A stretch of 62,935 nt of DNA, counting the filler, from Octopus bimaculoides (lineage: Eukaryota): the NCBI RefSeq assembly GCF_001194135.2. It is 6 parts of 6 records of this genome, joined end to end, with 100 filler letters (N's around TTAATTAATTAA, not from the genome) between each part and the next. Parts side by side here need not be neighbours in the genome. Positions count along the whole stretch, not along the records: positions 1 to 17,085 come from NC_069005.1; positions 17,186 to 25,436 come from NC_068992.1; positions 25,537 to 28,899 come from NC_068995.1; positions 29,000 to 35,384 come from NC_068996.1; positions 35,485 to 53,559 come from NC_068982.1; 1 more part is not named here. One strand, given 5' to 3'. Shown here one piece after another: positions 13,685-50,859 of this stretch. Position 1 is the stretch's first letter. The number at the start of each line of letters is the position of its first letter. Position numbers and translations under genes: made by a program. The notes beneath the pieces were generated by a model, which was given only the letters and a program-made list of their open reading frames with translations, did no database searches and was not told the origin of the DNA.

Positions 13685-14245
13685 AGCTTTGTTTATAATT
13701 TCAGCAAGCAAACTGTTTTTCTGATCAGTGCATATATACCAATAGAATTATTGTTATTTTATATTGTGTACAGCAAAATCCGAAGCGATTATTTAGATAT
13801 TTAATCTTAATACGGCGCAGCAGATTCGAACGCAAAAATATGGTAGTTGATGTTGTGCACGTCACAGGAGAACAGCATTTTTATAGATGACAATGCGTTC
13901 ATAATATACTCGGCTTACTGGAGCAAAGGATTCTGGGTCACTATCGTTTCGACATGTTGCATCTCGTCAGAAGTACCCAAACCTTTTGATCCAGCACAAG
14001 CCCTTCGATTTATTTATACTTCCAGCAAACAAACTGTTGGCTGGTAAGTGCTTATATCTGTCAAAGGCAAAAGGAAAAAAAAAAAATCGTTATTTCATAA
14101 AGTGTACAACGAAATCCGAAACGATGACTTCAATATTATTCCTAAAACTTTCTGGCAGATTCGAACGCAAAAATATGCTAGTCGCTATTATGTACGTCAC
14201 AGAGAACAACTTTTTCAATTTACAACGACAATGTGCTCATAAAAA
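13685..14245 (-). repeat. Old partial tandem repeat, period about 320-340 bp, with a hammerhead between the copies
   Basis: About 13685-13900 aligns by eye with about 14005-14245 (for example CAGATTCGAACGCAAAAATATG at both sites). The copies are otherwise clearly diverged. Confidence 0.75.
13934..13979 (-). ncRNA. Degenerate minimal hammerhead ribozyme
   Basis: UGGGUACU-U-CUGACGA-GAU-GCAACAU-GUC-GAAAC-GAU-AGU-G-ACCCA. Core is intact and stem I has 8 bp with one bulge, but the cleavage triplet region is non-canonical. Confidence 0.55.
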
Positions 14246-15569
14246 AAAAAAATAATAATTACAATAACTCGATTCATTCAGGACGTCTGAAAAAATACAA
14301 AGTCTTGAAAGAGAGATATTGAAAGGAATCCTATTCATTCCGAACAAACGGCAAATACACTCCGAAGTTTGGACATCCGTAATAAATATCTAAACTGCTG
14401 TAAAACATCCAACTCTCTCTCTCTCCATAATTGATAAAACATTCTTGTAAATATCATGAAGAATTAATGCAGGCCAGAATATCGATAAAGTGCTTCGAGA
14501 GAGAAAGAGGATTTTTTTCACTTTTAAAATACAATTATCTAATTAGAGAGAGATTAGTTATCAATAACATCGTTTCTAGCTGTCTCTTTTTTAATAGAGT
14601 CTAGTATTTGATATAAGCAGAATGGAACTTTTTTTTCTGTTGTTTTTTTTTAATTTTATTTTTTATTTTTTTCTTCTGTCCGGTATAGAAGTATAATATA
14701 TACTGAAATAAAACATTTTTCTGAATGACTATCTGGTATGTAGAATGGTTGAGATTGGTTGAAAGGATATGTAGACTGTATGTATGTATGTATGTATGTA
14801 TGTATGTATGTATGTATGTATGTATGTATGTACGTATGTACGTTCATATGTATGTTTGTGCATGTATGGGTATATACATATATACACATAGGCATATACA
14901 TATATGTATGTATATATAAGCAAGTATACATATGTGTGTATGTGCAAGTATATATATATATATATATATATATATATATATATATATATATANNNNNNNN
15001 NNNNNNNNNNNNNNNNNNNNNNNNNNNNNNNNNNNNNNNNNNNNNNNNNNNNNNNNNNNNNNNNNNNNNNNNNNNNNNNNNNNNNNNNNNNNNNNNNNNN
15101 NTATATATATATATATATATATATATATATATATATATATATATATGTATGTATGTATGTATATATATATTCCTCAATAGAAGGAACATTTCAGCCGGTT
15201 AAACATCTGTAATAAATCAGGCAATTAACTTGATGGACGATGTGTATTGATTGTTCGATTTAAGACTCTCCATACATGACAGAATCAGTTCATTTTCCCA
15301 AGATAAATTGAAGGACACTGTACGGAACTCTGTTAATGTGTGTTTCAGTGAATTCTAATATATTGATTAACGCAAATAGGAGATATTATTGAACATTAAC
15401 ACTATTAGGAATTAACTGCTAATATTTGAGCGAATGATTGTCTACGGAGTGCGTTTGCTCTGCTAGAATTAGTCGCCATGTCGCCCTCGAATCATTTTCG
15501 ACCGTCTTTGAAAGGATGTATTCGATAATTTGGGAGGGTTTTTTTAGTGCTTCTGCACATAGAAAAAAT

Positions 15570-15962
15570 ATTCTTTTCTACTCTAGGTACAAGGCTCGAA
15601 TTTTTTAGGGAGGGAGGCCAGTCGATTAGACCGACCGCAGTACGCAACTGGTACTTAATTTATCGACCTGGAAAGGATGAAAGGCAAAGCCGACCTCGGC
15701 GGAATTTGAACACAGGACATAAAGACAGACAAAATACCGCTAAGCATTATTCTTTTCTACTCTAAGACACAAGGCCCGATTTTTTTTTGGAGGGGACCAG
15801 TTGATTACATCGACCTCAGTACGCAACTGGTACTTAATTTATCGACTCCGAGGTCGATTTTGCCCTTCATCCTTTCGGGTCGATAAAATAGGTACCATTT
15901 GAGCGCTGGAGTCGATGTAATCAAACTAGCCCCTCCTCTCCCGAAAGTGTTGGCCTTGTGTC
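15570..15962. mobile_element. Cluster of three family A SINE pieces (two minus, one plus)
   Basis: Repeated GTCGATTA..CGACC..GTACGCAACTGGTACTTAATTTATCGAC, followed by an inverted copy. Confidence 0.88.
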
Positions 15963-16950
15963 GGCATGTCATCTTTGATGGTGCTGTGCCAGGCTTTGAG
16001 GCTGATGCACCCTCAAAAATATCTAAATCACTGCGATGGTGTGAACGACGGAGACGAAGATAAGGGTGAAGTGGGGTGGGCTTCACTTGTACGACACATC
16101 TTTGCTGCCGTTCATCTCATTGGTCAGAATGGCAGTCATGTGTCAAACGTAAACCAAACTTGGGTGTTTGGCATCTAGGATATTGATTTTTTCATCATTT
16201 GGGACTGTAAAATCAATTATCCGGCATTATCTATTCTCTTTATCTACTACTACCAAACCAGGTCTTCTAGCTTCTATTACTCTGTCAGTCTGATTGTTAA
16301 AATGTCACACGATCTTATATTTCTTACTTTCTAGTACTTTACTAAGTTCATGTTCATACCANNNNNNNNNNNNNNNNNNNNNNNNNNNNNNNNNNNNNNN
16401 NNNNNNNNNNNNNNNNNNNNNNNNNNNNNNNNNNNNNNNNNNNNNNNNNNNNNNNNNNNNNATATATATATGTATGTATGTATGTATGTATATGTATATA
16501 TATGTATATATGTGTGTGTGTATATGGTGGTGGCGATGATGGGTTTTTTCATGGTGTTGTTCTTTGATTTTAATAAAGAATTAATTCAGATTAAGGCAGT
16601 CGATGACAAAAAAACAGAAAGGAAAAGAAGGAAAAATAACAATCTAAGAACAATGTGCCGCACTAAAGTGAAAGCAGTGTAAATAACATTTGAAATGATG
16701 GATTTGACTGAAAGACAAGAAGATACCTGGAAACAGTTACAACAATTTCAACAAAGTTTCTTTTTCGTGTCAAGGAATGTAGCTTTACATACATACATAA
16801 TACATACATACATACATACATACATACATACATACATACATGCATCCATGCATACAGACATAGATATATTCATACATACACACGTACATACATTTATACA
16901 TACTTACATATAAGTATGTGTGGGTGAGTGTGCATTGAAACTTCCGCTGT

Positions 16951-16985
16951 GTATCCGATGAAGGACATTTTCCGAAACGTTATAC
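16951..16985 (+). ncRNA. Degenerate minimal hammerhead ribozyme (U4C)
   Basis: GUAU-CCGAUGA-A-GGA-CAUUU-UCC-GAA-ACGU-U-AUAC. All three stems and the ACGU palindrome are present, with one core substitution. Confidence 0.6.
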
Positions 16986-49808: not shown

Positions 49809-50690
49809 CTATAGGATATTCAGGTGTGGTTTATATTTTTCAATGAGTATGCTTTCCTTATTTAAACGGAATTGGGTTGAAGTGTTTCCGGTGTATTGAT
49901 AGAGAGGGAAGATTTGGTATTTCGGGTTTATGTCTGCAGGGCATTGATCTAGGTGCTTGCTTACGGGAATTTTTCTAGTCGTGGGGTCCCGGATTCGTTG
50001 CCTGTGCACCGTAAGTCTGTCCCTCAAAGTTAAGCTAGTTTGACCTATGTAGTCCCCGCCACACCCTCCACATTTGAGAACACAGATTAAGTTCTTCGAA
50101 GCACTGGTGAAGTGATTTTTTTATGGTAAAAGTTTGATTTGACTTAAATTTGTATGTTGAGCCCTCTAAGAGGAAGATGCAAGTTCCGCAGTTAAGGCGG
50201 TTGCACATTTTGACTAGTGGGGTTGTATTTTTGGTGGGTAATTTGGTGCTGGTGAGTAACTTTTTGGGGGATTGCGGTTGTCTCTTGCTTTTAATAATCC
50301 TATGTGTTTCCGGTGCCTTTTTCATTCGCGGGCGGGTCCTTCATAAGAAAGGGTATGTTTTGGTGGATGATGTATGCTTCCATGTTCCTTGGATTGTGTG
50401 TTGATACGTAAGATAAAGTTTTAAGTGTGTTATGGTGTTTTCTTGTTTTCCGTAACTCTTGGATGTCTATCATTTTTGCACATTCTATTCCGTTTTTGAT
50501 TAGACTGGCCGGGTATTTTCTATCTAGTAATGTGTTTTTAAGTTCTTGGAGTCGCTTTTCTCGGGTTTCAAGATTTGATGCAATCGTGCAAATTCTTCTC
50601 GCTAAGTTGAACAGTATATTTATTTTAGTATGTTTTGGGTGGCAAGAAGAAAATAGAAGATATTGTTTTGAGGTCATCGCTTCCATCTCT
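49809..50690 (-). mobile_element. Penelope-like retroelement, 5'-truncated: RT thumb, Cys linker and GIY-YIG endonuclease, frameshifted
   Basis: Joined ORF pieces: SKQYLLFSSCHPKHTKINI..LARRICTIAS, then CNRLNCGTC, then a YIGQT-type strand, then RDRLTVHRQRI..ESILIEKYKPHLN. Confidence 0.88.
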
Positions 50691-50704
50691 ATCCGTACGT
50701 GATA

Positions 50705-50749
50705 CAAACAGACTCGAGTTTCTGGGTAGTTACCCGTCCTCAACGTGTG
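50705..50749 (-). ncRNA. Penelope-associated minimal hammerhead, C3U variant
   Basis: CACACG-UUGAGGA-C-GGGUA-AC-UACCC-A-GAA-ACUCGAGU-C-UGUUUG. Has the 8-nt palindrome ACUCGAGU, a GUC site and 5/6 stem I pairs. Confidence 0.65.
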
Positions 50750-50814
50750 GTCGATGGGAAAAACACATAGTATTTTGCGAGTGGAATAAGTTTTCATCAC
50801 TAGCTTGTGATTAA

Positions 50815-50859
50815 CACATGCTGAGGACGGGTAACCGCCCAGAAACTCGAGTCCAGGAA
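50815..50859 (+). ncRNA. Penelope-associated minimal hammerhead (inverted copy)
   Basis: CACAUG-CUGAGGA-C-GGG-UAACCG-CCC-A-GAA-ACUCGAGU-C-CAGG. Core is intact with the same palindrome and GUC site; stem I is weak. Confidence 0.65.

Follow-up and report, generated by a model that had tools for sequence, protein, structure and literature searches.

Decayed type I hammerhead motifs, likely ends of several Penelope-like element families, in a contactin-bearing window of the Octopus bimaculoides genome

A window of Octopus bimaculoides DNA (62,935 nt, the whole stretch analysed here, with 5,605 Ns and 57,330 called bases) contains a series of sequences resembling minimal hammerhead ribozymes (min-HHRs), which raises the question of whether they are real ribozyme motifs, where they came from and whether they still act. 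They are real type I hammerhead sequences, and we consider it very likely that they are decayed 3' end pieces (pseudo-long terminal repeats, pLTRs) of several families of Penelope-like elements (PLEs), inserted independently in a probable long intron of a contactin gene. The set lies well above chance, is mostly decayed and belongs to a class known since 2014.

An initial annotation had listed at least nine motifs from about seven unrelated families. All nine were found at their positions, by which they are named here, and the families were indeed unrelated, but the count fell short, as a pair with a U3-A8 core, 25719 (-)/26144 (+), had been missed. With this pair the total was 11 motifs at eight sites, the nine making up seven sites because two pairs are inverted copies. 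Among the nine, 13934, 30029, 37138, 40121, 44459, and 50705 lie on the minus strand and 16951, 40358, and 50815 on the plus strand. Comparison of flanks showed the sites to be unrelated to one another apart from the pairs; 16951 and 37138 share their design, with a similarity score within background, and we therefore count seven to eight families.

13936 to 13976, minus strand: hammerhead-like motif with perfect core, 4-bp stem II closed by G-C and non-palindromic helix III (13934)
16949 to 16987, plus strand: min-HHR with ACGU palindrome and core change U4C (16951; 24.2 bits in the covariance model, E 0.002 per window in the scoring grammar)
25682 to 25725, minus strand: hammerhead with U3-A8 core variant, additional to the nine (25719; E 0.32 per window)
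26138 to 26181, plus strand: inverted copy of the U3-A8 hammerhead, with core change A6G and perfect 6-nt palindrome, additional to the nine (26144)
30028 to 30075, minus strand: hammerhead with perfect core, 10-nt self-complementary helix III including G-U, and weak stem I (30029; E 0.005)
37137 to 37175, minus strand: decayed min-HHR with an ACGU palindrome, a G12A change and one mismatched pair in stem II (37138; 21.4 bits, E 0.0085 in the covariance model)
40120 to 40167, minus strand: min-HHR forming the left half of an inverted pair, with stem I intact and damage in G10.1 and the palindrome (40121)
40357 to 40406, plus strand: min-HHR, right copy of the same pair, stem II intact, 3' strand of stem I lost (40358)
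44458 to 44518, minus strand: complete motif with perfect core, 4-bp stem II with a long loop, 8-nt near-palindrome and 5-bp stem I (44459; E 0.001)
50705 to 50749, minus strand: hammerhead sense to a PLE open reading frame (ORF) remnant, with C3U and 8-nt palindrome (50705; E 0.003)
50815 to 50859, plus strand: inverted relative of 50705 with perfect core, 8-nt palindrome and weak stem I (50815; E 0.001)

The self-complementary segments, which had been described as ending at the cleavage U, are present but end at U16.1, the cut falling 3' of the next base, and AUGUAUGCAU is self-complementary only if G-U pairs are allowed. Helix III was fully self-complementary in 7/11 motifs, had one mismatched pair in 3/11 and was absent in 13934. 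Self-duplexes of the 8- and 10-nt palindromes were computed at -10.7 and -9.4 kcal/mol, which fits a dimer design.

The window consists of AT-rich, microsatellite-laden animal DNA. Microsatellites were masked and the main descriptor was compared with 2790 dinucleotide shuffles made in 300-nt local blocks. The bare core pattern was observed 10 times vs. 3.1 expected, a number reached in 5/2790 shuffles. Values for the structured tiers were 5 vs. 0.46 (perfect core and stem II of at least 3 bp), 5 vs. 0.04 (perfect core and stem II closed by G10.1-C11.1) and 6 vs. 0.12 (one core mismatch, G-C pair and palindrome), each reached in 0/2790 shuffles, and the reversed window gave 0 perfect-core stem II hits. 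Made within the window, the comparison with shuffled sequence that the initial annotation had proposed genome-wide placed the hit density far above that of shuffles. The tiers were written after the motifs had been seen, the G-C and palindrome criteria being those of Cervera and De la Pena 2014; the tier with neither criterion was likewise significant. A U3-A8 tier, also written after the motif was seen, gave 1 vs. 0.003 expected. A cruder descriptor requiring stem I (157 shuffles) returned 1 perfect-core match vs. 0.03 expected and, with core mismatch allowed, no clear excess (3 vs. 0.54; 4 vs. 1.62); that it finds so little indicates heavily damaged copies.

A decay-tolerant scoring grammar (1411 shuffles) gave E ≤ 0.005 per window for seven of the nine motifs, with a gap beneath these seven (17.6 vs. 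12.3 bits) below which lay 37138 (E 0.22), 25719 (0.32), 45095 (0.58), and 13934 (0.63). A covariance model trained on 10 hammerheads of foreign PLE loci placed 40121, 16951, 37138, and 40358 at ranks 1-4 of 22 (rough E values of 2e-5 to 0.07) and missed the other five of the nine, motifs with a long palindrome or no extra base, types absent from its training class. The Rfam model Hammerhead_1 (RF00163) shares the core boxes and type I topology with these motifs and misses such variants: no site reached the cut-off of 34, the best score being 13.5 bits at 50819 (three sites rescanned singly), 44459 and 40358 gave no listing on single-site rescans, and no window site was among the 150 of 275 matches listed for the whole window, where microsatellite and hairpin matches dominated. 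Candidates 45095, 47052, and 62790-62832 were within chance and were dropped, the first being left uncounted:

45060 to 45101, minus strand: weak extra candidate with GAGA for GAAA (E 0.58)

Integrity varied among the motifs. Both core boxes were intact in 6/9 of the noted motifs (7/11 of all, with one change in the other 4/11), and at least four of the first five stem I positions were paired in 5/9 (7/11 of all); stem I was weak or lost in 30029, 40358, and 50815 and bulged in 13934. The closing pair G10.1-C11.1 occurred in 9/11 motifs and in 5/5 perfect-core stem II hits. Every part was intact in 44459 only (1/9), 10/11 motifs being damaged in core, stem or palindrome, and the monomer fold of 44459 did not favour the hammerhead. 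Differences between paired copies mostly broke pairs or core bases, and the two members of a pair were damaged at different places (40121 vs. 40358), which fits neutral decay.

Six of the 11 motifs form three back-to-back inverted pairs. Arms of the two pairs among the nine were 94.5% alike over 127 nt and 89.7% over 39 nt (masked self-BLAST); those of 40121/40358 (40089-40215 and 40309-40432) surround (ATT)n, and those of 25719/26144 (25641-25760 and 26103-26222, 86.7% alike) surround a (GATA)n array. Hairpin folds of inverted pairs were computed at -233 and -77 kcal/mol. For 7/11 motifs an array or gap lay no more than 150 nt away, vs. 26% for positions picked at random; we do not rely on this figure, since paired motifs are not independent.

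Two of the eight sites adjoin PLE ORF remnants in the expected orientation. Upstream of each remnant comes a sense hammerhead and, further out, an inverted copy, the layout given for PLE insertions in the available part of Craig et al. 2021 (PMC8557442):

24455 to 25435, minus strand: broken PLE ORF remnant, likely of the Hydra clade, with a CxCX5C motif and a block like the published Hydra alignment by eye
49812 to 50680, minus strand: 5'-truncated, frameshifted, multi-copy PLE ORF remnant with reverse transcriptase thumb, CX4CxxC linker and GIY-YIG

The CxCX5C motif defines the Hydra linker (Craig et al. 2021, PMC8557442, available part), and the U3-A8 hammerhead at 25682-25725 is sense to this remnant and about 250 nt upstream of it, with an assembly gap between. 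The second remnant had 1213 relatives at E ≤ 0.001; among 10 long relatives scanned, RVT_1 was found in 9/10 and GIY-YIG in 8/10. Its linker is of Neptune/Nematis type, and these are its candidate clades. The GIY-YIG piece had no match in a word-index protein search, and NCBIfam, Atlas and viral contigs gave no further usable match. A degenerate hammerhead near 49748 (-), about 60 nt past the GIY-YIG stop, was dropped (G8A and no palindrome).

The same association was seen in foreign PLE loci on metagenome contigs, of which the best 80 of 367 were analysed. The descriptor scan listed 40 motifs in these 80 loci, 37/40 of them sense to the ORF, and a core pattern lay within 600 nt downstream in 13/25 of the loci reaching the GIY-YIG end and in none of the other 12 (several with short flanks). 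The designs of the window recurred in these loci: palindromes of 4 and 6 nt, an extra base beside stem II on a single side or on both (the latter in L003 and L010), the U3-A8 core (L005 and L021) and an inverted pair (L044). A compact hammerhead, its stem II 3 bp long and its helix III longer and non-palindromic, was shared by several loci within L014-L068, often twice per locus.

The design matches a known class. The available part of Cervera and De la Pena 2014 (PMC4209133) describes type I hammerheads in the pLTRs of PLEs, with low activity in vitro and a short palindromic helix III that is believed to require dimer formation; about 2,000 min-HHRs were counted in Schistosoma, 4,000 in coelacanth and 9,000 in Xenopus, a heterogeneous collection of largely solitary copies that probably stem from truncated PLEs. 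Opposite-strand pairs at spacings of 100-700 bp, mollusc examples and U3-A8 are reported there as well. The window motifs share with these the type I fold, a short helix I, the G10.1-C11.1 pair, an additional base ahead of stem II, the palindromic helix III and the U3-A8 variant, as well as the many families, mostly single copies and opposite-strand pairs, and differ in several palindromes of 6-10 nt, one pair 78 nt apart and their decay; octopus was not found in the available part of that article. The Hydra table in the available part of Craig et al. 2021 (PMC8557442) lists 8-9-nt palindromes and a two-sided extra base; the window shares both of these features with Hydra-clade PLEs, as well as inverted 5'-truncated copies and microsatellite bias. 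File S2 of the same source gives an O. bimaculoides PLE hammerhead, Hydra-1_Obim, which no window motif matches by eye, and three window motifs were absent from a text search of the available supplement. Partial sources further report more than 6,000 hammerheads of 16 families in Acropora (Cervera and de la Pena 2020, PMC7229834), 235 Rfam hammerhead hits in the giant squid genome paper and Penelope expansions in octopus; a search of the available literature listed no census of octopus hammerheads.

Copy number was examined at the 49-51 kb locus, in reads over 49407-51900 from two DNA contig sets (X2, and X14 from organism B) and two RNA runs sampled at about 6 in 100. Against a single-copy depth of 60 (X2) and 35 (X14), the summed contig depth of the hammerhead pair (50667-50834) was about 22,000 and 5,000-7,000, respectively, rough values that are not copy numbers, and that of the ORF (49812-50680) about 5,000-19,000 and 2,000-68,000, likewise sums and not copy numbers. 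The 50705/50815 family is a repeat in both species, and its sequence seems to extend as far as about 50668. Of the best-supported variants listed for these reads, none fell inside the motifs. RNA reads occurred on both strands, mostly less than 95% alike, which indicates that they stem from other copies; 4/837 and 0/532 were at least 99% alike. No read-end piles were listed in the two RNA runs, a weak negative that is not evidence on cleavage, and no RNA dataset was listed for 49410-51060, which is not evidence on expression. Just 3' of the remnant, 49430-49660 is an unnamed repeat of very high copy, whose summed depth reaches 607,000 against 60 and to which RNA reads map in both orientations. 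The remnant is also flanked by a 343-nt inverted repeat with one difference (49064-49406 and 51067-51409). One X2 contig ran through its arm without a break, the arm was single-copy, and the left arm had the organism-B letter; a transposon end was rejected for this repeat because it is single-copy, and it probably reflects a second haplotype that the assembly put in the wrong place, or is peculiar to this individual.

Several observations weigh against a PLE origin for all sites. Six of the eight have no PLE coding remnant nearby, so that their origin is argued entirely from hammerhead design, and the Hydra-like remnant had no database match, including in a word-index protein search. Copy number was examined for one of the seven to eight families, and there the 3' flank of the ORF itself did not match the 50705/50815 pair and the pair to ORF depth ratios differed between the species; the pair may therefore derive from another PLE family inserted beside the ORF. 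The descriptors and the foreign training set were picked with stems in mind, and the two-sided changes at 9/11 pairs of the foreign hammerheads are partly circular and do not concern the window families. Lastly, 13934 is non-significant alone, lacks a palindrome and looks more like a retrozyme.

A PLE origin would nevertheless account for the set as follows. Reverse transcription may start near the 3' end of the element and usually stop early, so that short ends bearing a hammerhead, in many cases beside an inverted partner, would outnumber full elements; repeated 5'-truncated insertions would have left such ends, which later decayed. Following the literature, helix III of the parent element would be too short to fold alone and two copies in a tandem transcript would pair through the palindrome; such a dimer would cut 3' of H17, though only weakly and probably aided by protein. 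Transcribed inverted pairs would form long hairpins hiding the core. The window copies are predicted to be inert, since 10/11 are damaged, none has a same-strand partner and hairpins would hide the core. Of the earlier claims, the PLE origin, the minimal type I design and its palindromic helix III, the unrelated families and the contactin context were supported. For dimer cleavage through palindromes the window offers no partners, as nowhere in it do two copies of a family sit side by side on the same strand. The proposed diverse, long-lived hidden ecosystem held for the diversity of families, and the decay fits long life, but its novelty was overstated, the class having been reported in 2014; likewise, the view that it is largely invisible to ORF-based annotation stood for the six sites without coding remnant but not for the two that adjoin ORF remnants visible to protein searches or motifs.

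The alternative that survives best is that some sites are non-autonomous non-LTR (long terminal repeat) retrozymes and not truncated PLE ends, which we regard as possible but doubtful. The best candidate, 13934, lies between two direct repeats of about 260 nt, about 340 nt apart and 75% alike, 13650-14270 being a partial tandem of an approximately 340-nt unit that holds it; it has a long bulged helix I at about 13917-13995 (fold z -4.0, with boundaries chosen by eye after inspection), which speaks for it together with the perfect core and the G-C-closed stem II, whereas model R1 gave it no support (2.2 bits). Both the type I hammerhead and the unit length agree with the units of retrozymes, which are about 170-400 nt, tandem and make circular RNAs (PMC7229834, available part; bioRxiv 10.64898/2026.07.22.740005, available part). 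In contrast, retrozymes have tandem units each with a hammerhead (PMC7229834, available part), while 13934 has a single one in about 1.7 units that are 75% alike, no other window motif is in a tandem unit and no array holds two hammerheads. As retrozymes have been argued to derive from PLE pLTRs, this explanation is a sub-case of the PLE origin.

A further possibility concerns the end of the 50815 copy. Identity between 50705 and 50815 stops exactly at H17, the cleavage base 50853 (33 nt from position 3, coming from stem I), whereas it passes H17 in the other two window pairs and eight foreign pairs; moreover, the alignment of an organism-B contig sets in only at 50852, none being shown for the first 728 bases of that contig, and 50852-50855 straddles the predicted scissile bond (after 50853). 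The 50815 copy may thus be an insertion ending at the cut site. That the 50815-50853 end is the genomic footprint of ribozyme-cut RNA sometimes templating PLE insertion in vivo, in an octopus genome that, if the window is typical, would hold hundreds of thousands of motifs, we judge improbable: this is one case in 11, the bases past H17 still pair at 3/5 stem I positions, two subfamilies could share the ribozyme alone, organism B may have its own indel, and in vitro uncut RNA is the dominant PLE template.

The setting also bears on a role in the host. An immunoglobulin-domain exon of the window matched at 99% a contactin named from Octopus bimaculoides:

58356 to 62519, plus strand: four contactin coding exons, encoding residues 83-310 of P0151

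No frame of the window yielded residues 1-82, and the hammerhead motifs probably sit in a long contactin intron, provided that no gap conceals the missing exons. This probable intronic position, together with the conserved intronic hammerheads known in amniotes (from a partial source), would be in line with at least one motif being an active, host-adopted ribozyme acting on contactin pre-mRNA. Such a role is nonetheless very improbable, because all four copies on the contactin strand (4/4) are damaged and the sole complete copy is antisense, the strand split of 4:7 is not significant (P = 0.55), and RNA reads over 50705/50815 were few and mostly of diverged copies. Chance matches in AT-rich repetitive DNA, which the individual non-significance of 13934, 37138, and 45095, the lack of Rfam matches above cut-off and monomer folds mostly no better than shuffles might suggest, are rejected for the set and have a negligible probability, given the 0/2790 shuffles in the structured tiers, seven motifs with E ≤ 0.005 and the poor monomer folding to be expected of dimer-type hammerheads.

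Other repeats were found in the window. A SINE (short interspersed nuclear element)-like dispersed repeat occurs in more than 10 copies, 72-90% alike by masked self-BLAST (2043-2171, 3077-3483, 5396-5551, 15569-15960, 17475-17598, 26371-26510, 42598-42710, 59391-59553, 61164-61334), and two more dispersed families lie near 34794-35732, 39570, 45319, 46807, 52075-52362, and 54025-55092. The same 151 nt stand in direct orientation on both sides of a 10-N gap (9890-10040 and 10140-10290), likely an assembly overlap. At 40984-41807, 169-nt inverted repeats (82%) flank a short ORF (41221-41598) without Pfam match, which we take to resemble a piece of a Tc1/mariner transposase.

The motifs add seven to eight octopus families to a known class, and a hammerhead scan offers a cheap way of finding short PLE ends. 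They also bear on what PLE hammerheads do, given the weak cleavage in vitro and the anole PLE, whose hammerhead cut only with protein present and was dispensable for insertion in a purified system, with no read ends in RNA-seq. With one motif per approximately 5 kb (11 in the called bases of a window picked for them), the genome, if this density is typical, would provide many insertion ends in which clustering at the cut site could be sought.

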